A DNA stretch of 64,000 nt. Origin: Candidatus Nomurabacteria bacterium (lineage in GTDB: Bacteria; Patescibacteriota; WWE3; UBA101185; UBA10185). Under the pieces are notes generated by a model. The model made no database searches, was not told the DNA's origin, and saw only the letters and a list, made by a program, of their open reading frames with translations. The DNA lies in the NCBI GenBank assembly GCA_020631855.1, contig JACKGU010000001.1, forward strand, positions 363,118 through 427,117, given 5' to 3'. Below are positions 21,635-62,047 of this stretch, one piece after another. The position numbers were made by a program, and so were the translations under genes. Every line of letters starts with the position of its first letter. The first letter of the stretch is position 1.

Positions 21635-21709
21635 TCCCCTGTAGCTCAATGGTAGAGCGCCCGGCTGTTAACCGGTAGGTTGGTGGTTCGAGTCCACCCG
21701 GGGGAGCCA
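21635..21709 (+). tRNA. tRNA-Asn (anticodon GUU), CCA encoded
   Basis: U1-A72 acceptor (UCCCCUG/CGGGGGA), D-arm GCUC-AAUGGUA-GAGC, anticodon loop CUGUUAA, T-loop UUCGAGU, and a G discriminator followed by CCA. Confidence 0.8.
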
Positions 21710-22945
21710 AGTAGAATCAGTAGGCTCAGAAACACCATATTTAGCTGTGACAGCAACTAAATCCACTGGTTCTAACCGTCTATTTTTCACATATTCAGGA
21801 TTTTTACCCTCCTTGAATATCAAGAAGGGTTTTTCCAAGTCAATACACAGTTTTCTGTTATTAAGCATGAGGTTCTGACCAAGTAAAGATAAGATTTCTC
21901 TTTTAACAGTAAGTCCGCCATTTTCAAATCTCTCACGAACACTTGTAGCAAAGTTGAATACATCTTCAATCTTTTTGAGATATGCCTCTCTATTTTGTTC
22001 ATCTGCACTTAGTTCATCTTTAAGCTCGTCTCGTTTAGCTTTTACTTCAACTTTAATGTCTAGGTACTCTTCGCTAGAAATCTCATTATTCATACGCATG
22101 GTCAACAAATCTGCCAACTGCTTCTCTAGTCTTTTATATTCTTTTTGTTTTGATTCCAAGATTTGAAGAGAAGTTTCAGATTCGGTTTTACTCTTTTCAG
22201 TGAGGTATTTAACCGCCCAATCACGAAACTCAATTGGTATTTCGATTGATGACACCAACTCTATTATCTGCTCTTCTAAATCTAATAATGTTATAGATTT
22301 TTGCTTGCATTTAACGTGGGGTTTTCTTTTGGAACAATGATAGTAATCATATATGCCTATATTGCCCGTTTTAGGATAGTGCTTTTCCTTATGTGTTGCC
22401 GTTATAGCACACCCACATTCAGCACAATGTATCAGACCCGTATAAAGATGTACGTGTGTCTTTGGTTTTCGTTTAAGCTTTCTGCTCAGGATTTCTTGCA
22501 CCGAGTTAAATTCCTTTTTGGTCACCATTTTGGGGTGTTCACCTTTCCGTAACTGACCCTTATACCTAAAGTAACCATAATAAAAGGGGTTACTGAAAAT
22601 GTCATATAATCCTGATTTAGATATAGGTTTGCCACCAGATTTTTTTCTCTTAATAGAGCGGTAATTCCATTGGTTATTAGCAATTTCAAGTATTTCAGGA
22701 ACTGTATATGCTCCTGTAAGCATCAAATCCCACATTTTCCTTACCAAATCGAAGCGTTCTTGGTCTTTAATGATGGTGTTTTTACCTTTTTCCTTATACA
22801 TTGTGTTTAGATAACCCGCAGGAGCAACAGAAGGTAACCACCCTTTTTCAACTTTGGATTCTAGACCATCTGCAACTCTTTCCCCTTTTACATCATTCTC
22901 AAATTTAGCATTAAGCATGTTGTATTGGAGCATTAAGATTCCCAT
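21668..22945 (-). pseudogene. 5'-truncated large serine recombinase (lacks catalytic resolvase domain); C-terminal 14 codons antisense to tRNA-Asn
   Basis: It aligns with residues from about 150 onward of the intact recombinase at 60434..62047 (GWLPSVAPAGY vs LSPTPKYGY; FSNPFYYGYF vs FRDPFYYGVL). Zn-ribbon cysteines CAECGC...HC and a coiled coil are present. The resolvase domain and its catalytic serine (conserved RSxE/DQ context) are absent. Confidence 0.65.
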
Positions 22946-34371: not shown

Positions 34372-34390
34372 TGGTGACCCCACGGGGAAT
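34372..34390 (-). repeat. 19-bp direct repeat of the tRNA-Glu 3' end (TGGTGACCCCACGGGGAAT)
   Basis: Identical to 34507-34525 (the tRNA-Glu 3' end including CCA) and lying 117 nt downstream of the tRNA. Confidence 0.55.
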
Positions 34391-34459
34391 AAGCAAAGCT
34401 TGCATTTGTCTTCGACAAAAGTCGAACCTAGCTTCGCTATAGCTCTCTCATACCAGCAG

Positions 34460-34486
34460 CATCACATGAACAAAAACCTCCACCTA
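34460..34486 (-). terminator. intrinsic terminator downstream of tRNA-Glu (CUCCACC-GGUA-GGUGGAG + GUUUUUGUU)
   Basis: 7-bp stem with a 4-nt loop, followed by a U-rich tract on the minus-strand transcript. Confidence 0.45.
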
Positions 34487-34506
34487 CCGGTGGAGAACTT
34501 TGTTCA

Positions 34507-34581
34507 TGGTGACCCCACGGGGAATCGAACCCCGATTTACAGACTGAGAACCTGCCGTCCTAACCGTTAGACGATGGGGCC
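34507..34581 (-). tRNA. tRNA-Glu (anticodon CUC), CCA encoded
   Basis: Acceptor GGCCCCA/UGGGGUC, D-arm GUCU-AACGGUUA-GGAC as in bacterial tRNA-Glu, anticodon loop UUCUCAG, T-arm CGGGG-UUCGAUU-CCCCG. Confidence 0.7.
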
Positions 34582-37943: not shown

Positions 37944-38180
37944 TTATAATTTCGTTACTTAAACCTACTTACCCGAGCTAGTAGATGTAGTTTACCCAAC
38001 ATGTTGAGCTCTGCAAGGCAAAGAAATTACAGCAAACCACCTGCGTAAGCTGGTGATAGTTGATAATTTCGTTACTTAAACCTACTTACCCGAGCTAGTA
38101 GATGTAATTTACCCAACATGTTGAGCTCTGCAAGGCAAAGAAATTACAGTAAGCCACCTGCGTAAGCTGGTGGTAGTTGA
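37944..38180 (+). repeat. two tandem copies (period about 118 bp) of the 120-nt intergenic repeat family (copies B1, B2)
   Basis: 37944-38062 and 38064-38180 are about 95% identical to each other and about 80% identical to copy A. Confidence 0.7.
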
Positions 38181-38351
38181 TAGCCATATGCAAGGATACG
38201 TATTACAATACAACTGCTACTGTTTGAAACAAACGACGATCTGCCTACATAAAGACAGCTTGCAACTTCCCAACTACGGGCCGGTCAGTGTTAAAAGTAG
38301 TAACTAAAAAAGGTACAAAAAACCATATATAAATAGAAGGGAGGCGAAAAA

Positions 38352-38735: not shown

Positions 38736-38809
38736 TGGGGGATCGTCTAATGGTAGGACACTGCACTCTGGATGCAGGAATTGGGGTTCGAATCCCTGTC
38801 CCCCAGCCA
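38736..38809 (+). tRNA. tRNA-Gln (anticodon CUG), CCA encoded
   Basis: U1-A72 pair (UGGGGGA/UCCCCCA), the Gln hallmark; D-arm GUCU-AAUGGUA-GGAC; perfect anticodon stem CUGCA/UGCAG with loop CUCUGGA; T-loop UUCGAAU; ends GCCA, as in E. coli tRNA-Gln. Confidence 0.8.
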
Positions 38810-38867
38810 AGGAAAATATCCCTAAGCCTGAGAGGTTTGCGGATGTTTTTCTTTAACGGTTTAGACA

Positions 38868-39341
38868 TTAAAGTTCTCTAATTGCTATTGCTTGAAAAAC
38901 TGAACTTTCAGAATATCCCCATGTTTGGTAACCGTGAATTTCTACTTTTTTATCTATGTATTTTTCTAAATCATAAAAGTCCTTGCTATTAGGTCGTAAC
39001 ACTTGTATTTTATCAATATATAATGGCAATCCGGAAGCATTATTCATCAATAGATAGGGCTCCTCAAAATATATCCAGTACCAATAATCTCCCAACTCCA
39101 GCTCATCAGGAATATTTTCTTTTTTTAACGTGCCTTGTAAAAAAATTGGATTATCTTCCCCAGTAAATTCTATAACTCTATCTTGATCTTTTTCAACGTC
39201 CTTTGTAAAAGAGTCATTAACTACCGAGTATTCAATCTGCTTATTTATCTTTTTGATGGAATAAAAATAATAAGCAAATAAAATATTTATAAATAACGAA
39301 AGTGCTAATAAAGTAGATAAATATTTTTTAAACATAAACAT
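38868..39341 (-). CDS. hypothetical membrane-anchored protein
   Basis: 157 aa with an N-terminal TM helix. Confidence 0.45.
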   Translation of the reverse strand: MFMFKKYLSTLLALSLFINILFAYYFYSIKKINKQIEYSVVNDSFTKDVEKDQDRVIEFTGEDNPIFLQGTLKKENIPDELELGDYWYWIYFEEPYLLMNNASGLPLYIDKIQVLRPNSKDFYDLEKYIDKKVEIHGYQTWGYSESSVFQAIAIREL

Positions 39342-39434
39342 ATTTTACTACTTTATGGCAGTACGAAATAGCATATATGTGCAATTGACTTAAAAAATGG
39401 GTTTATATTTTTATAAGTACCAATTTGTGACCAT

Positions 39435-39512
39435 ACGGCCAGCCATATAGCCTTAAGAAACTACGTACAAGATAGAACTACCTTTTTGATGCTAGACCCA
39501 TATGCTCAGCCA
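39435..39512 (+). repeat. cassette-junction repeats J1a (39435-39478) and J1b core CTAGACCCATATGCTCAGCCA (39492-39512)
   Basis: J1a matches 44646-44687 (ACGGCCAGCCATATA...AGAAAC...ACA.GATAG). J1b matches the cores at 40455, 41168 and 43588. Confidence 0.55.
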
Positions 39513-39514
39513 GG

Positions 39515-39551
39515 AATTTGGCAATCAGCCTGAAGGGCTGGTTGCCAAATT
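39515..39551 (+). repeat. 16-bp near-perfect inverted repeat AATTTGGCAATCAGCC-tgaag-GGCTGGTTGCCAAATT
   Basis: 15 of 16 positions are complementary (one U-G in RNA); it lies between junction repeat J1b and the attR-like copy. Confidence 0.5.
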
Positions 39552-39640
39552 ACTTGTTGAGAGCGAAAGGATTCGAATGGCGCAGGCACGACGGTGCCGA
39601 GCCGAGGTCGGGCAAAAATTCAGCAGAATTTTATGCGTGA

Positions 39641-39661
39641 CCGAATCCCTGTCCCCCAGCC
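39641..39661 (+). repeat. exact 21-bp copy of tRNA-Gln 3' end (attR-like)
   Basis: Identical to 38789-38809. Confidence 0.7.
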
Positions 39662-39730
39662 AGGGTTTCTCCCTATAACAACAATCCCAAATATAGGCCA
39701 TCAGGTAATTCGAACTGATATAATGTTCTT

Positions 39731-40402
39731 ATGAAACTAATTTTGGGCGGAGGCGGGGATGAAAACACCTCCATACAATCACATAAACGCTTTTTTGATC
39801 TTCTGAAAAATTCTAGAAAAGTCTTATACATCCCAATAGCAATTCTTTCAGATAAATATACACCAGAAGGGTGCCTTTCTTGGTTTTCAGGAGCTTTTAA
39901 AAATATGGGAGATCTAGATATCGAAATGGTCACTAGATTTGAGGATATCGATAGTGACTTAGGCAAGTATGCTGGTATCTATATTGGTGGTGGAAATACC
40001 TATAAGTTACTTCATGAGATGAAAAAATCTGGTATCGATGAGAGATTAGATACATATAAGGGAGTAGTCTATGGGGGCAGTGCTGGAGCTATCATATTTG
40101 GTAAAGATATATCTACTGCTGAACATGCGGATATAAATAATGTTGGTTTAAAAGATATTTCTGGGTTAAATTACCTAAAAGGTTATAACTTGTGGTGTCA
40201 CTATAAAGAAGAAGATATTCCCCTAATAGATCGGCTAGTAGAAAAGGGGCAGAAAATTATATCTATTGAGGAAGATTCGGCAATTTACATCAATAATACA
40301 CATATAATTCAAAGTATTGGTAATAATGTAAGAATTCATATACAAGGAAAAGATACTTTCAAACTTTTACCAAAAGAACAGTTCGAACTTCTTCCCCGAT
40401 GA
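39731..40402 (+). CDS. peptidase S51 (dipeptidase E/cyanophycinase-like) family protein
   Basis: IYIGGGNTYKLL and VYGGSAGAIIF (Ser nucleophile) align with the PepE motifs IIVGGGNTFQLL and IGWSAGA. Confidence 0.7.
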   Translation: MKLILGGGGDENTSIQSHKRFFDLLKNSRKVLYIPIAILSDKYTPEGCLSWFSGAFKNMGDLDIEMVTRFEDIDSDLGKYAGIYIGGGNTYKLLHEMKKSGIDERLDTYKGVVYGGSAGAIIFGKDISTAEHADINNVGLKDISGLNYLKGYNLWCHYKEEDIPLIDRLVEKGQKIISIEEDSAIYINNTHIIQSIGNNVRIHIQGKDTFKLLPKEQFELLPR

Positions 40403-40454
40403 ACAACCAAATGGCCTGGATACGCATCGTACAGGATAGAACCCTATTTTAGTA

Positions 40455-40500
40455 CTAGACCCGCATGCTCAGCCAAATATCCTGGAGAAACTGTGAATGG
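40455..40500 (+). repeat. cassette-junction repeat J2: core CTAGACCCGCATGCTCAGCCA + tail AATATCCTGGAGAAACTG
   Basis: The core is shared with J1b, J3 and J6; the tail is shared with 42961-42985 and 44659-44687; it is flanked by the inverted pair CAGGATA/TATCCTG. Confidence 0.6.
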
Positions 40501-40522
40501 GATATAGTGATATTATAATATC

Positions 40523-41158
40523 GTGAAAGAATTCGAGAACATAAAAAAATATATAGAATTTATTAACTCATTAGATTTAACTTTCGATAAAAATCCGGAA
40601 GAATATGGGTACAAAAACCCAGTAATACTCTTGATGGACGCAACCCTTTCAATAAATAGACAGTACAACAAATTTGTTCTTCCAAGAATTGAATATTTTA
40701 AACAGAGTTTTCCTAATATAAATACTCTTGAGAAACTTAATAATTTGATAAAAGAGACGGGTATAAATGACTTCGAAAACGTGTGGAATTATAATCATCC
40801 TAAGAGGGTGGAAATATTACAAAACCTAGCTAAGTTTTTTCTCGAATATAAAACTGAAAATTCTATCAAGGATGATTTAGAAAGTATGAAACATTGGGCT
40901 AAGAGTGTAGATATAAATTCTGGAAAAATATTACCAATAGATGGAATGGGATTTGCAACAAGCCAATATATAAGAAAGATGTTAGGCGTTGATTCTGTGA
41001 AACCAGATGTTCATATAAAAAGATCTATTATTGAAGGGATAGGAGAAAAAATGTCTGACAAAAAAACTGTGATGTTTATAGAAATTGTTGCAAAGGAAAT
41101 GGGTATTACTCCAACAGCTCTAGACCATGCTATTTGGAAACATTACTCCTTGAAATAA
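40523..41158 (+). CDS. HhH-GPD-like (DNA glycosylase superfamily) protein
   Basis: GMGFATSQYIRKMLGVDSVKPDVHIKR resembles the helix-hairpin-helix Gly/Pro-rich loop plus Asp of HhH-GPD proteins. It has a GTG start. Confidence 0.4.
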   Translation: MKEFENIKKYIEFINSLDLTFDKNPEEYGYKNPVILLMDATLSINRQYNKFVLPRIEYFKQSFPNINTLEKLNNLIKETGINDFENVWNYNHPKRVEILQNLAKFFLEYKTENSIKDDLESMKHWAKSVDINSGKILPIDGMGFATSQYIRKMLGVDSVKPDVHIKRSIIEGIGEKMSDKKTVMFIEIVAKEMGITPTALDHAIWKHYSLK

Positions 41159-41167
41159 CGTTTGGTG

Positions 41168-41188
41168 CTAGACCCGTATGCTCAGCCA
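41168..41188 (+). repeat. cassette-junction repeat J3 core CTAGACCCGTATGCTCAGCCA
   Basis: 20 of 21 identical to the J2 core; it lies about 40 nt upstream of the RyR gene ATG. Confidence 0.6.
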
Positions 41189-41229
41189 ATAGCTTGGAGA
41201 ATATAACTCTATATCTGTATAATTACGGA

Positions 41230-41445
41230 ATGAATTTCAACAAAGAGATGTTAGAAAGACTTGCCGAACTAGAACATAGACAATGGGCCACTTGGATGAA
41301 GTATATGCTAAAAAATCTTACATCTGAAAATATAGAAAAGTGGAAAAAGCAAGCTGATACCCCATACAAAGATTTAACCGAAAAGGAAAAGGACAGCGAT
41401 AGAAATTGGGCTAAAGAAGTGCAAAAAATACTTAATGGTTCTTGA
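41230..41445 (+). CDS. small RyR-domain protein
   Basis: LAELEHRQWATWM...TPYKDLTEKEKDSDR matches the bacterial RyR (ryanodine-receptor-like) domain pattern EHERW...PY..L.E.EK..DR. The start is taken at the internal Met MNFNKEM. Confidence 0.45.
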   Translation: MNFNKEMLERLAELEHRQWATWMKYMLKNLTSENIEKWKKQADTPYKDLTEKEKDSDRNWAKEVQKILNGS

Positions 41446-41462
41446 CCTGCTTGCTCAGCCAA
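41442..41462 (+). repeat. cassette-junction repeat J4 (TTGACCTGCTTGCTCAGCCAA)
   Basis: Shares GACC...GCTCAGCCA with the other cores; it lies 45 nt upstream of the HD gene. Confidence 0.5.
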
Positions 41463-41506
41463 GGCAGTAACTATTATTTTTAATAGTAGTAACGTAAAAT
41501 ACTCTT

Positions 41507-42142
41507 ATGAATACTTCGGAAATAGTCTCGTTCATTACATTCTCTGAAAAATTAAAAAAATTAGAAAGATTTAAAGGACAATTCTACTGGAAGGACTATC
41601 CCACGTTACCAAGATATGAGTCTGTAGCGGATCATTCTTGGCGATTATCTTTATTGATTTACGCTTTTGAAAAAAAACTTTCGCACCCCATAAATATTGA
41701 AAAAGCACTAAAAATGACAATTATTCACGATTTACCTGAAATTATTTCTGGCGATGATAGTCCAATGGGAAAAGATGGAACTGGTAAAGATTCGCATGCC
41801 TATAACGGTGATGTTCAAAAACAAAGACACGAAAGAGAAAAAGATGCTGCAAAGGAACTGTTCAGCAAACTTCCAAAAGATATTGGTGAGGAAATGTTTA
41901 ACTTGTGGGTTGAATATGAATCTCAGGAATGTTTTGAAGCAAAAGTAGTTAAAGCACTAGATAAAATTGAATGCTTGCTACAAGTACTTGAATATAGTAA
42001 TGGGAATTTGTTTAAAGACCATCTGGAATTTAGTATTAGTTATGGATTAAAACATGCGAATATCGATCCTGCCATTAAAAGCTTTGGGGAAGAAATTGCT
42101 CAAGAGATGAGAAATTCTTATAAGGAATACGTAAATGAATAG
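41507..42142 (+). CDS. HD-domain phosphohydrolase (YfbR-like 5'-deoxynucleotidase family)
   Basis: ESVADHSWRLSLL (H motif) and HDLPEIISGDD (HD motif) align with E. coli YfbR ENVSEHSLQVAMV and HDASEVLTGDL. Confidence 0.65.
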   Translation: MNTSEIVSFITFSEKLKKLERFKGQFYWKDYPTLPRYESVADHSWRLSLLIYAFEKKLSHPINIEKALKMTIIHDLPEIISGDDSPMGKDGTGKDSHAYNGDVQKQRHEREKDAAKELFSKLPKDIGEEMFNLWVEYESQECFEAKVVKALDKIECLLQVLEYSNGNLFKDHLEFSISYGLKHANIDPAIKSFGEEIAQEMRNSYKEYVNE

Positions 42143-42297
42143 TGGGTGAAAGTTTAAATAGCGTACAGTACGAACGGCCAAATTGAAAAAACACTACTTT
42201 CCTTTATAACCGCAAGTTCCAAAACACGCTAAAAAACGTAGGCCAATTTGAACTTTGGAACTTGCAGAATGTATGCAATAAAATGGTATCGTCTCTT

Positions 42298-42762
42298 CTA
42301 AAAGAAAAAACCTTTGGATTTAGATTTTAAGAAGTGTTTTAATTCGATCAAAAACTCTCGCACTTCTATAGGAAGCCTGCTTAATCCGTTTGTTTTTCCA
42401 TCCAACCAAGATATATATTTCTCATAAGAGACTTTACTATCAATGTAATAACTGTTTTTTGCTAACAAAGTATTTATTACAGGTTGAATTTTATCCATTA
42501 AGTAAACGGATTCAGATTCTGGGCTACTCTTGTTCTCATACTCTTCAATAGAAGTGTGTAAACCGTCAAAATCTTGCCATCTCTCTTTTATATTATTAAG
42601 TGCTTCCTGTTCTCTATCGAATTTATTGTTCTTTTGCTCTTCTGATGCGTTATGAGAGTCCGTATCACCGGCTTGAATTTCTACTAAATCATGCGTAAGG
42701 GCATACTTAAAGACCTTTAATAAATCCAAATTTAGGTTAAATTTCTCAATAAGATACAGCAA
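42298..42762 (-). pseudogene. degenerate HD-domain (YfbR-like) paralog lacking the N-terminal His motif
   Basis: It retains LTHDLVEIQAGDTDS (the HD motif), but the upstream region has an in-frame stop where the ExxxEHS motif should be. The ORF has a TTG start. Confidence 0.35.
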
Positions 42763-42943
42763 GTAATCGCTAGTTTGAAACTATGCTCTGGGTCTGTTTC
42801 CATTTGGTCTCGTCCACGGATAGGTGCTTTTCGATATATCTGGTCAAAATCATGTAAATAATCAATGAGGGAACAAAGCGCGTTATGTTATCCATATCAT
42901 GATTAAAACATTCCACAACTTATAAAAGTTCCAACCAAATCTC

Positions 42944-42985
42944 AACTGCCCAGTCATTAAACCTGGAGAAACTGCTTACAGGATA
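42944..42985 (+). repeat. cassette-junction repeat J5 (…CCCAGTCATTAAACCTGGAGAAACTGCTTACAGGATA)
   Basis: The tail is identical to the J2 and J7 tails; the core is degenerate. Confidence 0.5.
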
Positions 42986-42989
42986 ATAA

Positions 42990-43541
42990 TTATCTCCTTC
43001 TAGCCACTAAAATTTCACGTTCTTGGTTCATACCTGATTTAGTTCCACCTATTACTTTGTCGTGTAACAACACATCCCAGGATTTATATTTATTGACTAG
43101 ATAGTCTCCAACAAAATAGCATTTTTTATGGTTAATATTAAATTCACCTTGGTCTGTAAAACCAACGATTATATTTATTCCATCTGTTGCAGTATGTTCC
43201 TGTATCGAATCTATGAGTTTGTCTCCGGACGAAAGTTTTAAAAAATGAAAAGTAAAGAAGGAAATGATGTCATCATAAGTGTCGTTTATAATATAGTTAT
43301 TAAGATCTGCTCCTTCGGTATGTATGTTTAGATTGTTTTCATTTGCAAATATTTTTAAGTCATTAAGCGCTGCGTTATCCTTATCTATATTCATAACTTC
43401 AAACCCATTTCTTGCAAGAAAAATTGCGTTTGTTCCATCTGATCCGCCTAAATCCAAAACCTTTCCAGTCTTTAAATCAGCTAAATATTTTACCAATAGT
43501 TTATTAGGCTCCTTTGACCATCGTGAATTAATCACAGTCAT
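42990..43541 (-). CDS. class I SAM-dependent methyltransferase (TehB-like)
   Basis: Motif I VLDLGGSDGTNAIFLARNGFEV; 183 aa. Confidence 0.65.
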   Translation of the reverse strand: MTVINSRWSKEPNKLLVKYLADLKTGKVLDLGGSDGTNAIFLARNGFEVMNIDKDNAALNDLKIFANENNLNIHTEGADLNNYIINDTYDDIISFFTFHFLKLSSGDKLIDSIQEHTATDGINIIVGFTDQGEFNINHKKCYFVGDYLVNKYKSWDVLLHDKVIGGTKSGMNQEREILVARRR

Positions 43542-43587
43542 ATCTTTCAGTTTAACATCAATTTCTACACTAGATAATAAGTTGGTT

Positions 43588-43619
43588 CTAGATCTATTTG
43601 CTCAGCCAGTGTTTTCTCC
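43588..43619 (+). repeat. cassette-junction repeat J6: CTAGATCTATTTGCTCAGCCAGTGTTTTCTCC
   Basis: Core plus CAGCCAGTGTTTCTCC, which matches the attR flank CAGCCAGGGTTTCTCC at 39656-39671 at 15 of 16 positions. Confidence 0.6.
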
Positions 43620-43682
43620 TTGTCAAAACAACATAAAACAACCCATACCCAATAGAGATTAGAACTAAGGTATACTTTATGT

Positions 43683-44612
43683 ATGGAAAATAACTTTACC
43701 GACTTTCTAATAGAATTAACAAATATCTCACCTAGACGAGGTATTAACGAACAAAAAGCAGCCCAATCAATTAAAAAATATTTAACAGAAGCAGGTGTTG
43801 ATTTTACTACTCAAGAATTTGAAACGATAATCCCTGATATAAAAAAAGCTGAATTATATGCTGATGGTGAAAAAATTCCTTGTTTAGGAGCATCCTTTGT
43901 TAGCGGACATATAGACAACAAAGCAACTATAGTTAATGCAACAGGACCTAATGTGCAAAATCCCATGATAATTTTTAATCCGGTGTCGTTAGGTGTGTGT
44001 TTACAACAGTTTAAAAAATACCCTGCAGTTACTATAAATAGAGATTCAGTTATTCAATTAATAATGGCCAACAATATCAAGGGTGAGGTTATTGTAGAAG
44101 ATTTTAAATTTATATCCCAAAATATTTTAGTCGGTAACACGAGTAATCCTGAAAATATTGTTTTTGCTCATTATGACTCTTTAATAGGTGGTGCCTTAGA
44201 TAATGGAGGAGCTGTAGATGTTTTATACCAATTAATAACTGATGATAAAAATTTATTAATCAATAATCTTTTTGTTTTTATTGGTAGTGAGGAAGAATCA
44301 ACTTCAAGTGAAGATGGCTTATGGGGTTTTAATATTTTCGACAAAAAATATCATGAATTACTATTAAGCTGTAAAAAGGTTATAGTTCTGGATGGAGTAG
44401 GTATCGGAAAACCCAAATTTGTGTCTAACCATATTGATTGGGTTTTTGGAGTAGACCGTGATATGGATAAAATTAGTCCTAAAGTACTTTGGATGCAAAA
44501 CGATCAAACAATAGTTATGAAATACTATCATTCTGACTTGGATACAATATCAATCTTAAAAACCGAACATCTAAATGAAGCTAAAGAATTATTATTAAGT
44601 GAAATAAGTTAA
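43683..44612 (+). CDS. M28-family metallopeptidase-like protein
   Basis: FAHYDSLIGGALDNGGAVDVL...FVFIGSEEES matches the H-x-D / D / EE metal-ligand pattern of M28/M20 peptidases. Confidence 0.55.
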   Translation: MENNFTDFLIELTNISPRRGINEQKAAQSIKKYLTEAGVDFTTQEFETIIPDIKKAELYADGEKIPCLGASFVSGHIDNKATIVNATGPNVQNPMIIFNPVSLGVCLQQFKKYPAVTINRDSVIQLIMANNIKGEVIVEDFKFISQNILVGNTSNPENIVFAHYDSLIGGALDNGGAVDVLYQLITDDKNLLINNLFVFIGSEEESTSSEDGLWGFNIFDKKYHELLLSCKKVIVLDGVGIGKPKFVSNHIDWVFGVDRDMDKISPKVLWMQNDQTIVMKYYHSDLDTISILKTEHLNEAKELLLSEIS

Positions 44613-44645
44613 ATTTGAGTAAATATAGTTCTAACTTCGCAAGCT

Positions 44646-44687
44646 ACGGCCAGCCATATATCCTGTAGAAACGGCTTACAGGATAGA
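44646..44687 (+). repeat. cassette-junction repeat J7 (ACGGCCAGCCATATATCCTGTAGAAACGGCTTACAGGATAG)
   Basis: Matches J1a and the J2/J5 tails; it contains the inverted pair TATCCTG...CAGGATA. Confidence 0.55.
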
Positions 44688-44823
44688 GATTCTTTATGGT
44701 ACTACATCCATATACCCAACCAAAGTGAACACATCCATGACCGTGATTTGTGAGAAGTCTTAAACATCTTTGTTATTTTGAAGTTTTGCTATTGAGATTC
44801 GGACCGTTTTTGGCTTGTGGTTA

Positions 44824-49998: not shown

Positions 49999-51834
49999 AT
50001 GCAAAAAAATGCAAAAGTTCTTTCCATTATAATTTCTGTCACTTTAATTTTTAATTTTTTCCTTCAGCCAATGGCGGCTTTCGAACAAAATACCAGCTTG
50101 GCCGACTCCGACGCATCTTTTGCAGCAAACGTTCTTGGAGATAATGTTGGGAATGCCCTATCAAGCGCAGGAGATGTAAACGGGGACGGTTATGACGACT
50201 TTCTATTAGGCGTACGTTACGGCGGGGATATAGAGGCCGGCGCAGTTTATCTGATACTAGGAAAGGCAGAGGGCTGGGCTATGGGAGCAGATATAGACGA
50301 TGCAGACGCTTCTTTTGAAGGCGAAGAAGCTTACGACAACGCTGGATACTCAATCGCCGGCGCAGGAGATGTAAACAACGATGGTTATGACGATTTCTTA
50401 ATCGGTGCCCCAGATGCTGATTCCGGACTAGGTAAAACGTATCTGATTCTTGGTAAAGAAGAGGGTTGGGCTATGGAAACAAGCCTAGCTGACGCAGACG
50501 CTTCTTTTGTGGGAGAGTACGAATCTGATTACTCGGGCTCCTCAGTCTCCGGAGCAGGCGATGTAAACAACGATGGTTATGACGATTTCTTAATCGGTGT
50601 CTCAGATGCTGATTCCGGAATAGGTAAAACGTATCTGATTCTTGGTAAAGAAGAGGGTTGGGCTATGGAAACAAGCCTAGCTGACGCAGACGCTTCTTTT
50701 GTGGGAGAGTACGAATCTGATTACTCGGGCTTCTCAGTATCCGGAGCAGGTGATGTAAACAACGATGGTTATGACGATTTCTTAATCGGTGCCCCAGATG
50801 CTGACTCAGAAACAGGAGAAACATATCTGATTCTTGGTAAGGACGAAGGCTGGGCAGCAGAAACAAGCCTGGCTGATGCAGACGCTTCTTTTGTGGGAGA
50901 GTACGAATCTGATTACTCGGGCTTCTCAGTCTCCGGAGCAGGTGATGTAAACAACGATGGTTATGACGATTTCTTAATCGGTGCCCCAGATGCTGACTCA
51001 GAAACAGGAGAAATATATCTGATTCTTGGTAAAGAAGGGAGTTGGGCTATGGAAACAAGCCTAGCTGACGCAGACGCTTCTTTTGAAGGCGAAGAAGCTT
51101 ACGACAGCGCTGGATACTCAATCGCCGGCGCAGGAGATGTAAACGATGATGGCTATGATGATTTTCTATTAGGATCTCCGTGGTATAACGAAACAGAGGA
51201 CGCATACGAAGGAAAATCCTATTTAATACTGGGCAAAGAAGGGGGTTGGGCTATGGAAACAAGCCTGGCTGACGCAGACGCTTCTTTTATAGGAGAATAC
51301 ATATACGATTATTCAGGGCAAGCAGTCTCGGGTGCAGGAGATGTGAACGGGGATGGCGCAGATGACATACTTATAGGGGCTCCCGGAGATGGTGAAGATG
51401 AAAACCTATACGGAAGGGTGTATCTACTACTAGGCACTCCTTCGGAAGAGGATCCCTCCGAGGACATAATAACTAACGATAACAACAACCCCACCCCAAA
51501 AAACACATTCAAAAAAGATGCCAAATGCCGATGGCAAGATCCTAACGAACTCACGTGGGTTTTGCTAGAACCAATGGACAAAAACGGAGTGTCAGGAATC
51601 AATCTTACATGGGTACAGTATGGTGCCGATAAAATTAATATTAAAATAGACGACGGCACAGGCAGCTACCCCTGGAATATAACAGAAATTTCAAACGATG
51701 GGCAAGAGTTTCTTCCAAACGTATTTGCATGGCAAAATATAAAAGTGCAGGCGGTGAACCACTGTAACAAAGGTAAGTGGAGCCAAGAATTTTCTTACAC
51801 TTCCTATCCTGAGGGCTGGTATAACGTTAAGTAG
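49999..51834 (+). CDS. FG-GAP repeat (integrin-alpha-like 7-bladed beta-propeller) secreted protein with C-terminal beta-sandwich domain
   Basis: Signal peptide; seven repeats of GDVN(G/N)DGYDDFLIGAP...YLILGKEEGW...ADADASF. Confidence 0.75.
   Translation: MQKNAKVLSIIISVTLIFNFFLQPMAAFEQNTSLADSDASFAANVLGDNVGNALSSAGDVNGDGYDDFLLGVRYGGDIEAGAVYLILGKAEGWAMGADIDDADASFEGEEAYDNAGYSIAGAGDVNNDGYDDFLIGAPDADSGLGKTYLILGKEEGWAMETSLADADASFVGEYESDYSGSSVSGAGDVNNDGYDDFLIGVSDADSGIGKTYLILGKEEGWAMETSLADADASFVGEYESDYSGFSVSGAGDVNNDGYDDFLIGAPDADSETGETYLILGKDEGWAAETSLADADASFVGEYESDYSGFSVSGAGDVNNDGYDDFLIGAPDADSETGEIYLILGKEGSWAMETSLADADASFEGEEAYDSAGYSIAGAGDVNDDGYDDFLLGSPWYNETEDAYEGKSYLILGKEGGWAMETSLADADASFIGEYIYDYSGQAVSGAGDVNGDGADDILIGAPGDGEDENLYGRVYLLLGTPSEEDPSEDIITNDNNNPTPKNTFKKDAKCRWQDPNELTWVLLEPMDKNGVSGINLTWVQYGADKINIKIDDGTGSYPWNITEISNDGQEFLPNVFAWQNIKVQAVNHCNKGKWSQEFSYTSYPEGWYNVK
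50173..51400 (+). repeat. seven tandem 192-bp intragenic repeats (FG-GAP blades); units 2-5 nearly identical at nucleotide level
   Basis: GATGTAAAC recurs at 50173, 50368, 50560, 50752, 50944, 51136 and 51340. Units 50368-51135 are more than 90% identical. Confidence 0.7.
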
Positions 51835-60413: not shown

Positions 60414-60491
60414 CGGGGTATAGCTCAGCTTGGCTAGAGCGCACGATTCGGGTTCGTGAGGCCGCAGGTTCGAATCCTGCTACCCCGACCA
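60414..60491 (+). tRNA. tRNA-Pro (anticodon CGG), CCA encoded
   Basis: Acceptor CGGGGUA/UACCCCG, D-arm GCUC-AGCUUGGCUA-GAGC, anticodon stem CACGA/UCGUG with loop UUCGGGU, T-arm GCAGG-UUCGAAU-CCUGC, ends ACCA. Confidence 0.8.
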
Positions 60492-62047
60492 TTGGATTTT
60501 TCCCTCTGTTTGAATAGGGTGTTGAATGGTTCTTTTAGTTGGTATGAAAGGATTTCGTCATCTCCAACATCGATGTTCAAGAATATAAATCGGCAAATTG
60601 CATCTTTTACAGCAGGACCGCCGTTTTTTACTGCTACTGGAGCGTTTTTCGATAAGTTCAAGAATTGTTCCAAACTTATCTCCTCTACCTCTGATTTTTC
60701 CAGCTTTTCATTTAATTTCTCCATTTCCATTTCCAATTCCTCTTGTTGAATTGATAAATTCTCGATTTCCTGTTCACCAACTTTTCTAGCCGTCTTGTTT
60801 GTGGATGACTTCAATACAGATAAGGACAATTCCTTTATTTGAGTTTTAACAAAGTTCAGAGAACCTTGCGTGCTATGCAACAAGGTCCTTAACTCAGCCC
60901 TTCTTTTATCGCTTATCTGCTTGAGGCTTCCGTAATAAGCGTTGTACTCCTTTTCAGTAAAATTGAGACCATCATCAAGTAGTTCATATATAAAATCCAT
61001 TACGAACTTCATCCTGACTGATTTTTTGATACCATTTGGGTTTTCTTCAGTCTCTTGGTAGCGTAAACAGCTCTTGTTATCACACCTTGCATACAGATTC
61101 CTCGTCACTTTATTTCCACTTAAAGAAGGTGCGATATACATATTCCCACCACAAAAAGCACACTTAACAATTCCTTTTAATGGATAGAAAGCTAGTCTCT
61201 GTCTAGTCCTGTAGGGGGTCTGATGGACTCTGGATTGTTGCTGTATGCGAAAGAAATCAGCCTCTGCAACCGCAGGGACAAAGTCATAAATTTCTCTCAA
61301 GTCCACGCTTTGGTTAGCCTGTACCAAAACACCATAATAAAAAGGGTCTCTAAACATTTCAGAAAGTTTCTGAGGTGTCATCTTTGTTTTCCTCCTAGTC
61401 TTTTTTATTTCTCTAAAATATCCAAAGGAATTTATAGTTTCAGAAATTTCTTCGTGGGGCTTTCCCTCTAGCTTCATACTCCATGCAGTTTTAATGAGTT
61501 CGTGGTTATCACCATCTGGTCTGTATATGCCATCCTCATTTTTGTAACCGTATTTAGGTGTTGGTGATAGACCCTTTTTCAGGTTATCTCTTACTCCTCT
61601 TGTGACATCCACTGATAGCTTGTCAGAATACTGTTTAGATAACACAAATGCTATACCTAATAGCATTTTTCCACTAGGCGTGTTTTCGAAGTGATGAGTT
61701 ACAAATTTCAGATCTACTATAGATCCCTCATCCAACATGTTTATTATTTCTCCTCCCTCCTTCATATTCCTTGCTAGACGGTCTGGGTGCCACGATAATA
61801 TGCCATCGTACTCTTTTCTTTTTAACTTACGTAATACTTCAGTAAACTTTTCTCGTTTCCCTGGAGATTTTGCGGAACCTTCTTCCTTTATTATCTCTAC
61901 GACATTAAGACCCTTATACTTAGCGAATTTTTCACAGACATCTTTTTGTTGAGGAATCGATTTCAACTGACCCTCATTGTCCTCTCGGGATCTTCTTAAA
62001 TACATTACATATTTTAACTTTGTAATATCCAATTGCTCATCTATCAT
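60434..62047 (-). CDS. large serine recombinase (integrase), full length; last 19 codons antisense to tRNA-Pro
   Basis: N-terminal resolvase domain YLRRSREDNEGQLKSIPQQ (catalytic Ser), a recombinase domain, a Zn-ribbon (CAFCGG...CDNKSC) and a coiled coil. The stop codon TAG lies at tRNA-Pro nt 21-23 on the opposite strand. Confidence 0.85.
   Translation of the reverse strand: MIDEQLDITKLKYVMYLRRSREDNEGQLKSIPQQKDVCEKFAKYKGLNVVEIIKEEGSAKSPGKREKFTEVLRKLKRKEYDGILSWHPDRLARNMKEGGEIINMLDEGSIVDLKFVTHHFENTPSGKMLLGIAFVLSKQYSDKLSVDVTRGVRDNLKKGLSPTPKYGYKNEDGIYRPDGDNHELIKTAWSMKLEGKPHEEISETINSFGYFREIKKTRRKTKMTPQKLSEMFRDPFYYGVLVQANQSVDLREIYDFVPAVAEADFFRIQQQSRVHQTPYRTRQRLAFYPLKGIVKCAFCGGNMYIAPSLSGNKVTRNLYARCDNKSCLRYQETEENPNGIKKSVRMKFVMDFIYELLDDGLNFTEKEYNAYYGSLKQISDKRRAELRTLLHSTQGSLNFVKTQIKELSLSVLKSSTNKTARKVGEQEIENLSIQQEELEMEMEKLNEKLEKSEVEEISLEQFLNLSKNAPVAVKNGGPAVKDAICRFIFLNIDVGDDEILSYQLKEPFNTLFKQREKSNGRGSRIRTCGLTNPNRAL

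Follow-up and report, generated by a model that had tools for sequence, protein, structure and literature searches.

Modules at the 3' end of tRNA-Gln

We analysed a 64,000-nucleotide (nt) stretch of the Candidatus Nomurabacteria bacterium contig JACKGU010000001.1, referred to here as the window, and describe an array of small modules that lies in it directly downstream of a tRNA-Gln(CTG) gene (38736-38809, + strand; found with ARAGORN and matched by Rfam tRNA at 58.4 bits). Twelve modules are stacked 3' of this anchor, from 38810 to 44722: eight hold a single gene (u157, S51, u211, RyR, HD, an HD pseudogene, TehB and M28), three are gene-less 'empty' units of 66 nt, and one is a gene-less structured unit of 150 nt. 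The tRNA gene ends in ...CCCCCAGCCA, which is the boundary sequence common to the modules; all 12 end in ...C(A/C)AGCCA, matching the final bases of tRNA-Gln, and every end lies on the + strand. GC content is 0.29-0.34 across ~40-50 kb of the window, against ~0.39 in its remainder. A first-pass annotation, made from the letters of the window, had read the region as a cassette-array-like island anchored at tRNA-Gln, with an att-derived junction motif and no integrase in cis, and this central reading holds.

Module boundaries fall at 38809, 39446, 39512, 39662, 40409, 40475, 41188, 41461, 42180 (weak), 42956 (weak), 43608, 44656 and 44722, and none was recognised past 44722. The seven junctions of the first-pass annotation are all present within 1-2 nt of where it had placed them; the boundaries at 39446, 40409, 42180, 42956 and 44656, which are weaker, come in addition to its list. 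Its picture of single-gene modules fits eight of the 12 modules but not the three 66-nt units or the structured unit, which are gene-less. Pfam bears out its calls of S51, RyR, HD_3, an HD_3 fragment, TehB, M28 and GNAT, but not that of u211 as an HhH-GPD-like protein, which has no Pfam match and only a faint resemblance to OGG (E=0.002). Its suggestion that the cargo serves defence found no support in PADLOC, which returned only weak, generic matches.

The repeating unit is best written as a preceding ..CAGCCA end followed by B, a spacer and D, which itself closes in ..CAGCCA at the next boundary; three 66-nt copies of this unit are gene-less. D is a 21-nt core with the consensus CTAGACCCNNATGCTCAGCCA and the window form CTAGACCCNYATGCTCAGCCA. 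Copies with 0-1 mismatch lie at 39492-39512, 40455-40475 and 41168-41188, and degenerate copies at 41441-41461 and 43588-43608 (3 mismatches each) and at 44702-44722 (5 mismatches). None of 100 shuffles that preserved dinucleotides gave a match to D, GCTCAGCCA occurs 5 times where 0.29 would be expected, and a D profile run over the 64-kb window found nothing outside the array, where all copies are on the + strand. The tail hairpin B, TATCCTGGAGAAAC-N-GCTTACAGGATA, lies at 42959-42985 and 44659-44685, with degenerate copies at 39447-39476, 40410-40440, 40476-40507 and 41189-41217.

Cassettes of two types can be told apart by their arms. Type 1 cassettes (u211, RyR, TehB) have B at the start and D at the end. 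Type 2 cassettes (S51, M28) have a ~75-nt conserved 5' arm, G.GTTTCTCC...ACAACAA...GGATTCGAACT...TATAAT, and end in ...TTCGAACTTCTTCCCCGATGAACA(A/G)CCA or TACGGCCAGCCA. The match between junctions and the tRNA-Gln flank that the first-pass annotation had reported (CAGCCAGTGTTTTCTCC against CAGCCAGGGTTTCTCC) is real and forms the opening of this conserved cassette 5' arm. The modules are as follows.

Module 1, 38810-39446: unknown 157-aa gene u157 (38868-39341, minus strand); end TACGGCCAGCCA at 39435-39446.
Module 2, 39447-39512, + strand: 66-nt empty unit of B, spacer and D (D1, 39492-39512); a similar unit is present in locus L077.
Module 3, 39513-39662, + strand: gene-less structured unit of 150 nt, with a terminal exact 21-nt copy of the tRNA-Gln 3' end (39642-39662).
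Module 4, 39663-40409, + strand: type-2 5' arm with TATAAT (39663-39730); S51 peptidase gene (39731-40402; Pfam); end ...TTCGAACTTCTTCCCCGATGAACAACCA.
Module 5, 40410-40475, + strand: 66-nt empty unit of B, spacer and D (D2, 40455-40475); missing from the matching junction of locus L079.
Module 6, 40476-41188, + strand: B arm; unknown 211-aa gene u211 (40523-41158); D3 (41168-41188).
Module 7, 41189-41461, + strand: degenerate B arm; RyR-domain gene (41230-41445; Pfam); D4 (41441-41461), overlapping the stop codon.
Module 8, 41462-42180, + strand: HD_3/YfbR-like gene (41507-42142; Pfam); degenerate end ...ACGAACGGCCA (42169-42180), a weak boundary.
Module 9, 42181-42956, minus strand: HD_3 pseudogene, open reading frame (ORF) 42298-42762; degenerate end ...CCCAGTCA (42945-42956).
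Module 10, 42957-43608: B hairpin (42957-42987); TehB-like methyltransferase gene (42990-43541, minus strand); D6 (43588-43608).
Module 11, 43609-44656, + strand: type-2 5' arm (43609-43682); M28 peptidase gene (43683-44612; Pfam); end TACGGCCAGCCA (44645-44656).
Module 12, 44657-44722, + strand: degenerate 66-nt empty unit with B (44659-44685) and D7 (44702-44722); final recognisable boundary.

Loci compared with the window carry L numbers. The flank beyond module 12 (44723-44745) resembles the right-arm consensus found after tRNA-Gln or D in other genomes, and the module 4 end, TTCGAACTTCTTCCCCGATGAACAACCA, also terminates a recombinase-bearing element of L079 and one module of L030. Stop codons disrupt the N-terminal part of the HD_3 pseudogene in module 9. 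The u157 gene has a homologue (58% aa identity) close to a u211 homologue in L074, and the TehB cassette has no relatives in the protein database. Module 3 folds strongly as RNA (z=-5.9) and is ~90% identical to a WWE3 locus. In Rfam searches at the gathering threshold and at E<=5, no family covered D, B or module 3 and tRNAs alone were matched; module 3 as a group I intron or a split tRNA was set aside on the same Rfam result. Structured gene-less modules of ~150 nt occur at 39513-39662, in L024 and at L030 4870-5204, the two L030 analogues differing in sequence; their order is a hairpin, GAGAGCGAAAGGATTCGAAT, a 64-nt GC-rich insert, the T-stem 3' strand, the acceptor strand and CCA.

D resembles the 3' end of tRNAs (T-arm, acceptor strand and CCA) at 12.4 of 24 positions, a value reached by 5 of 5000 shuffles, and this likeness is not specific to tRNA-Gln apart from the terminal CAGCCA. 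A reading of the A, B' and D segments together as a full-length pseudo-tRNA was rejected, as the portion 5' of D has no significant similarity to the 5' part of tRNAs. Motif A, TGTCTCATTTGTCTCATT, is a pair of direct repeats of 9 nt each. In most units outside the window it precedes D by 8-44 nt and frequently has TTTTTATA(C/G)T before it (loci L021-L036, L039-L073 and L077). It is absent from the window's units and has no similarity to the tRNA 5' half; an accessory protein may bind to it.

Each + strand cassette gene has its own TATAAT, TAAAAT or TATACT box, separate from D, ending 3-6 nt before the start codon (sites 39719-39733, 40514-40525, 41218-41232, 41495-41509 and 43671-43685). There is no Shine-Dalgarno sequence between box and start, and this spacing therefore suggests leaderless mRNAs and cassettes that are self-contained expression units.

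Exchange of modules between genomes

Comparison of related genomes locates the points at which modules differ. Loci L021 and L032 are 99.9% identical over 1541 nt up to CAGCCA, where L032 continues with an additional 2.4 kb that ends in its own A-D arm, after which similarity resumes. The sole sequence common to both breakpoints is CATGCTCAGCCA (~12 nt), and the crossover is placed within it, since the breakpoints share nothing else. The difference between L067 and L059 is of the same kind: the 51 nt directly after tRNA-Gln in L059 and L043 are 100% identical to those which, in L067, come after the D of another element.

The B-u211-D cassette recurs in three other genomes with differing neighbours, in L079 (87% aa identity), L087 (83%, with a degenerate D) and L077 (75%), and the junction upstream of u211 carries an extra 66-nt unit in the window and none in L079. 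Homologues of u211 also occur outside any array, in L074 and L085. As a separate observation, L080 (1-815) holds a u211 homologue (61% aa) 90 nt after tRNA-Leu(TAA), followed by small accessory genes without D motifs; there may be arrays with other arm families at other tRNA genes.

The sole syntenic locus found, L030, is labelled Saccharibacteria and has VanW, NYN and tRNA-Gln in common with the window. Its junctions are those of the window, with B straight after the tRNA gene, D, copies of the tRNA 3' end and both type-2 arms, and its cargo has no gene in common with the window. Over a 173-nt stretch comprising D and module 3, the window and a WWE3 genome share ~90% identity, from which we infer horizontal transfer.

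Every insertion or replacement polymorphism seen between related genomes has its breakpoint within or just after CCA. Taken together, these alignments show that the junctions behave as recombination boundaries at the CCA end of tRNA-Gln, across which modules have been gained, lost and re-assorted among lineages of the Candidate Phyla Radiation (CPR). The module-level variation that the first-pass annotation had proposed to look for is thus seen between related genomes but not among strains with >99% identity. Contig JACKGT010000005 of GCA_020631805.1 is 100% identical to the window, and ten contigs of other samples, which match it at 99.2-100% over the array, all carry the same modules. This uniformity leaves no sign of current activity in this species.

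Distribution across CPR lineages

In an exact-match scan with one genome per species, D was found in 16 CPR genomes with a single match in each, where ~4 would be expected by chance over the whole collection. These genomes are labelled Saccharibacteria/Saccharimonadia, WWE3, Shapirobacteria and 'Patescibacteria group', two being named merely 'bacterium'. A further 35 metagenome contigs bear D, and many of them break at or near it. The exact D pattern had 0 matches in viral contigs; a looser pattern gave two GC-rich matches within coding sequence, which we attribute to chance.

A D profile over the 51 D-bearing loci gave 88 matches in the orientation of the tRNA and 1 opposite. Among the 23 loci with enough upstream DNA, 16 have tRNA-Gln upstream on the same strand. 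Successive D copies are spaced 67-73 nt apart, or 0.44-6.1 kb (mostly 0.44-2.4 kb), and arrays like that of the window occur in other lineages, namely in the WWE3 loci L034/L049/L053 (four D sites) and in L070, L026 and L077. Judged from the recurrence of a similar layout with different genes across CPR lineages, the 3' side of tRNA-Gln is a gene-acquisition hotspot common to several of them. We found no description of this CPR array in the literature searched.

The cargo of other arrays (L073, L021/L032/L033) is in part of a kind seen in defence systems or mobile elements, and includes a nucleotidyltransferase-like protein, an XRE/ImmA pair, a LexA-like S24 peptidase and DUF4145. A zinc-ribbon protein of 399-447 aa recurs close to D: its gene lies two ORFs upstream of D in L073, and directly upstream of A-D in L021/L032/L033.

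Recombinases in the window and at tRNA-Gln of relatives

Pfam searches of essentially all window ORFs of >=100 aa found no tyrosine recombinase or Phage_integrase, and no TnpA or TnpB was found in the window. Elsewhere, Pfam on a subset of loci and inspection by eye of the upstream ORFs of seven loci found only cargo-type genes, and no integrase, beside tRNA-Gln or D. Two genes for large serine recombinases (LSRs) lie at other tRNA genes of the window:

60434-62047, minus strand (feature 60414-62047): 537-aa LSR, overlapping the tRNA-Pro(CGG) 3' end.
21668-22945, minus strand (feature 21635-22945): 425-aa LSR without the resolvase domain (truncated), overlapping the tRNA-Asn 3' end.

The hallmark of LSR elements, a tRNA-proximal gene with Resolvase, Recombinase and Zn-ribbon domains, is thus present at tRNA-Pro, truncated at tRNA-Asn, and not found at the tRNA-Gln array. 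The first-pass annotation had named the window's LSRs as candidate enzymes acting in trans. LSRs do occur at tRNA-Gln in relatives, but the two in the window share only 24-33% identity with these and are therefore unlikely to be the cognate enzymes.

LSR genes convergent with tRNA-Gln and overlapping its 3' end were found in L079, L083 (where the LSR is 67% identical) and L081/L082. L084 is a further relative with an LSR gene convergent with a tRNA gene and adjoining its 3' end, the element lying on the far side, and a more distant LSR relative (46% identity) sits at tRNA-Ala. In L079 the order is tRNA-Gln, an LSR, S51, a type-2 end, and then B-u211-D. In the L081/L082 stack, tRNA-Gln is followed by element E2 (LSR-510 and a rolling-circle Rep), which ends in ...CTGCTCAGCCA / ...AAAGTTCCAACTAAATCCCAACTGCTCAGCCA, and then by element E1 (LSR, primase and reverse transcriptase). 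It follows from this stack that an LSR element can end in a D-type arm and meet the next element exactly at CCA.

Two LSR elements with a D-type arm were found, that of L081/L082 and that of L040, where A-D lies beside an LSR. L040 (Ga0136601_1002110, 5763 nt) has identical first and last 44 nt, spanning D and 22 nt of flank, and these matching ends make it a possible D-type element in circular (excised) or tandem arrangement. Just beyond its D lie genes for a 428-aa LSR and a 107-aa protein, and homologues of the latter follow D in L051 and L073. In L025 only ~100 nt of the 3' end of an LSR gene are left beside tRNA-Gln, a remnant which indicates that LSR elements decay to recombinase-less modules.

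Other features of the window

At tRNA-Glu(CTC) (34372-34581, minus strand), a 117-nt hairpin-rich spacer is followed by an exact 18-nt copy of the tRNA's own 3' end (34372-34389), a layout that is also that of module 3 at tRNA-Gln. Strain L001 (GCA_020427845.1), otherwise 99.7% identical, diverges exactly at 34372 and has different genes beyond, and on this ground tRNA-Glu anchors a second variable island that is polymorphic between strains. Four of the five tRNA genes of the window have a mobile-element signature at the 3' end.

A 117-nt tandem repeat (2.0 copies, 96% identical; 37946-38182) occupies the spacer between the NYN gene and tRNA-Gln, and strain L003 is apparently one copy short. 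Tandem repeats of 192/384 nt (50302-51164) lie within the gene for an FG-GAP repeat protein (49999-51834), whose length varies by strain (483 aa in L001, 547 aa in L004 and 611 aa in L002).

Discussion

We propose that the array is probably an island that grew by accretion, through site-specific recombination at the 3' end of tRNA-Gln, that its cassettes are recombinase-less, and that the junction motif is a recombination scar and not a regulatory signal. A circular element or cassette would bear an attachment site in which D...CAGCCA is followed by a right arm, and recombination would join this site to the 3' end of tRNA-Gln or to a module already in place, at its CAGCCA end. Exchange would take place within the shared CATGCTCAGCCA/CAGCCA segment of 6-12 nt, so that tRNA-Gln would stay intact; the newest module would come to lie next to the tRNA gene and older modules would be displaced distally. 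The likeliest enzyme would be an LSR of the tRNA-Gln-associated clade, which full elements would supply in cis and on which recombinase-less modules would depend in trans. In the window, the modules would be miniaturised or decayed derivatives that keep a right arm, one self-promoted gene and a D arm, and the three 66-nt units would be elements of which only the two arms are left. The array seems frozen in this species, given that the window has no cognate recombinase, that one cassette holds a pseudogene and that strains do not vary.

Several observations weigh against this proposal. Between 38810 and 46340 we found neither a recombinase nor an LSR remnant, tblastn at E<=10 returning only chance matches and a tRNA-overlap artefact, and 50 of the 51 D-bearing loci are without an LSR; the link to LSRs therefore rests on a handful of loci. 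Seven of the 23 informative loci have no tRNA-Gln within 4.5-9.7 kb upstream. Neither strain-level variation nor a circular junction was observed for the window species among the ten contigs that are >99% identical. Canonical LSRs recombine attP with attB only, exchanging strands at a central 2-bp crossover in sites of 40-50 bp. Repeated insertion beside a tRNA gene whose right flank has already been replaced is non-standard behaviour for such an enzyme, and the model leaves without explanation how an LSR would tolerate a replaced right half-site, as it does motif A and the gene-less structured modules. No dyad symmetry is obvious around CCA. Tandem LSR elements do exist, as L081/L082 show, and the comparative breakpoints narrow the exchange to the 12-nt CATGCTCAGCCA segment.

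A bolder form of this proposal, which we offer tentatively and hold to be rather improbable, is that the array belongs to an integron-like gene-capture platform of CPR bacteria that docks at the CCA of tRNA-Gln. Its self-promoted, recombinase-less single-gene cassettes, each with a conserved att arm of ~25-65 nt (A-B'-D), would be mobilised in trans by serine recombinases, which would actively excise them, pass them between lineages and insert them anew. If such mobilisation in trans is real, a cassette system would have evolved independently of integrons, and in organisms with minimal genomes.

Against both forms of site-specific recombination stands a miniature non-autonomous transposon (MITE- or PATE-like, for example of the single-strand IS200/IS605 kind) that inserts 3' of ...AGCCA and itself ends in AGCCA, the intervening genes being ordinary island genes. 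Three gene-less 66-nt units sit exactly after ...CCA, one of them missing at the L079 junction; the boundaries are sharp and free of target duplication, the B hairpin lies 2-4 nt inside the left end, orientation is strict, and the array is free of a recombinase of its own. Elements of the IS200/IS605 kind are marked by subterminal hairpins, by insertion 3' of a short target that is not duplicated, and by a Y1 transposase in the genome. However, neither TnpA nor TnpB turned up in the window, and the units are confined to one locus per genome instead of being dispersed. Genes also travel with the arms, as B-u211-D does in four genomes and the 2.4-kb D-bearing module does in L032 against L021, and LSR-bearing elements end in D arms. 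We regard a transposon of this kind as unlikely.

It is also possible to do without any dedicated system, if the repeats are decaying local duplicates of the tRNA-Gln 3' end and its flank and exchange proceeds by homologous recombination. Such an account fits module ends, D among them, that resemble tRNA 3' ends, and an array that does not vary in the window species. In L035 and L023, what follows tRNA-Gln is ~90% similar to what follows D over 50-70 nt, a length that would permit homologous exchange and may account for some events. Independent local decay would not, however, be expected to keep the non-tRNA consensus CTAGACCCNNATGCTCAGCCA across Saccharibacteria, WWE3 and Shapirobacteria. The 90% identity of the 173-nt stretch between the window and WWE3 implies transfer, D-type arms occur on LSR elements, and only ~12 nt are shared at the breakpoints. 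As a general account, we find this quite doubtful.

An RNA-level role, with the tRNA-like 3' end as a processing, stability or termination signal of island transcripts, is in our view very unlikely for the motif, though the structured module 3 may have one. It would suit a D that is tRNA-3'-like and ends in CCA, and that follows the 3' end of a co-oriented gene in 43 cases against 7; the B hairpin with its T-rich tail at 44659-44685 is terminator-like, and module 3 is strongly structured. But Rfam has no match, a cloverleaf or acceptor stem cannot form, D keeps its orientation even beside opposite-strand genes (modules 1, 9 and 10), and the insertion polymorphisms exact to CCA are left unexplained.

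Highly improbable, too, is a shared promoter or operator of a regulon, an alternative that the first-pass annotation had raised from the placement of the motif near start codons. In the window, D does end 42-75 nt upstream of four start codons, but the motif does not recur genome-wide upstream of core genes, being restricted to a single locus per genome in 16 species with an 88:1 strand bias. The distance from D to the next start varies between -10 and 377 nt, downstream genes lie on the opposite strand in 14 of 51 cases, promoter-like sites show no enrichment, with 26 where 27 were expected, and each + strand gene has its own TATAAT-like box apart from D.

Integrons are marked by IntI, by attC palindromes (RYYYAAC...GTTRRRY, with crossover between G and TT) and by promoterless cassettes under a common Pc. 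That the region is made up of integron cassettes, either as a full array or as a CALIN (cluster of attC sites lacking integron-integrases), served by an IntI encoded elsewhere in the genome can hardly be right: it has mostly co-oriented single-gene cassettes with a site at the 3' end, the same cassette in different arrays and no integrase in cis, but no IntI or tyrosine recombinase was found in the window or beside tRNA-Gln in the sampled loci, attI, attC structure and a GTTRRRY/RYYYAAC core are lacking at boundaries that read ...CAGCCA and then variable sequence, sites are conserved in sequence and not in structure, cassettes have promoters of their own and three lie on the opposite strand, insertion is at the CCA of a tRNA gene that takes the place of attI as anchor, and the recombinases of relatives are serine and not tyrosine enzymes.

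The first-pass annotation had likened the array to integrons and to pdif/Xer modules, and the likeness is one of architecture, the features that define either system having been looked for and not found. The pdif/Xer modules of Acinetobacter plasmids are bounded by 28-bp XerC-spacer-XerD sites in alternating orientation. The array likewise has small gene modules between short conserved recombination sites and a recombinase encoded elsewhere, whereas its boundaries show no 11-6-11 XerC/XerD dyad, its sites are all direct (88:1) and it is chromosomal and tRNA-anchored. With LSR elements at tRNA genes, the LSR-convergent layout is shared by L079, L083, L081/L082 and L084 and by tRNA-Pro and tRNA-Asn of the window; the tRNA-Gln array differs in having no LSR, and stacking at a single tRNA gene together with LSR-less cassettes of the same arm is atypical of such elements.

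The closest known systems appear to be tRNA-anchored tandem-integration islands of the tycheposon type, the likeness being one of layout. In Prochlorococcus, tycheposon islands form by tandem integration at a tRNA gene, with partial tRNAs between elements and newcomers displacing older elements; degraded integrase-less remnants persist, a minority use large serine recombinases, and the hosts have streamlined genomes with few classical mobile elements (10.1101/2020.12.28.424599). The window's island likewise starts at an intact tRNA-Gln and has direct partial-tRNA/att repeats between modules, namely the exact 21-nt copy of the tRNA-Gln 3' end and 11 further tRNA-3'-like ...AGCCA ends, all on the + strand. 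It differs in that its modules are nearly all single genes without integrase or replication genes, that gene-less, arm-only 66-nt units occur, and that the repeat is mostly no copy of the local tRNA but a diverged D consensus that is found across lineages and travels with the cassette. The integrase and replication genes of tycheposons have counterparts not in the window array but in relatives, in L079 (LSR), L081/L082 (LSR with Rep; LSR with primase and reverse transcriptase) and L083. What would be new with respect to known islands, as far as the compared loci indicate, are the self-promoted, recombinase-less single-gene cassettes, a diverged att arm that is kept across lineages and travels with the cassette, and units made of arms alone.

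CPR bacteria (Patescibacteria) have tiny genomes in which few mobile elements are recognised, and little is understood of how they come by accessory genes. tRNA-Gln together with the 21-nt signature marks a recognisable acquisition hotspot in Saccharibacteria, WWE3 and Microgenomates-type lineages, at which turnover is visible at the level of cassettes and at least one stretch has recently passed from one lineage to another. As a simple sequence marker, the locus can help to locate flexible genes in CPR metagenomes. It also suggests a natural pair of recombinase and att site, which might serve the genetics of CPR bacteria that are hard to manipulate.

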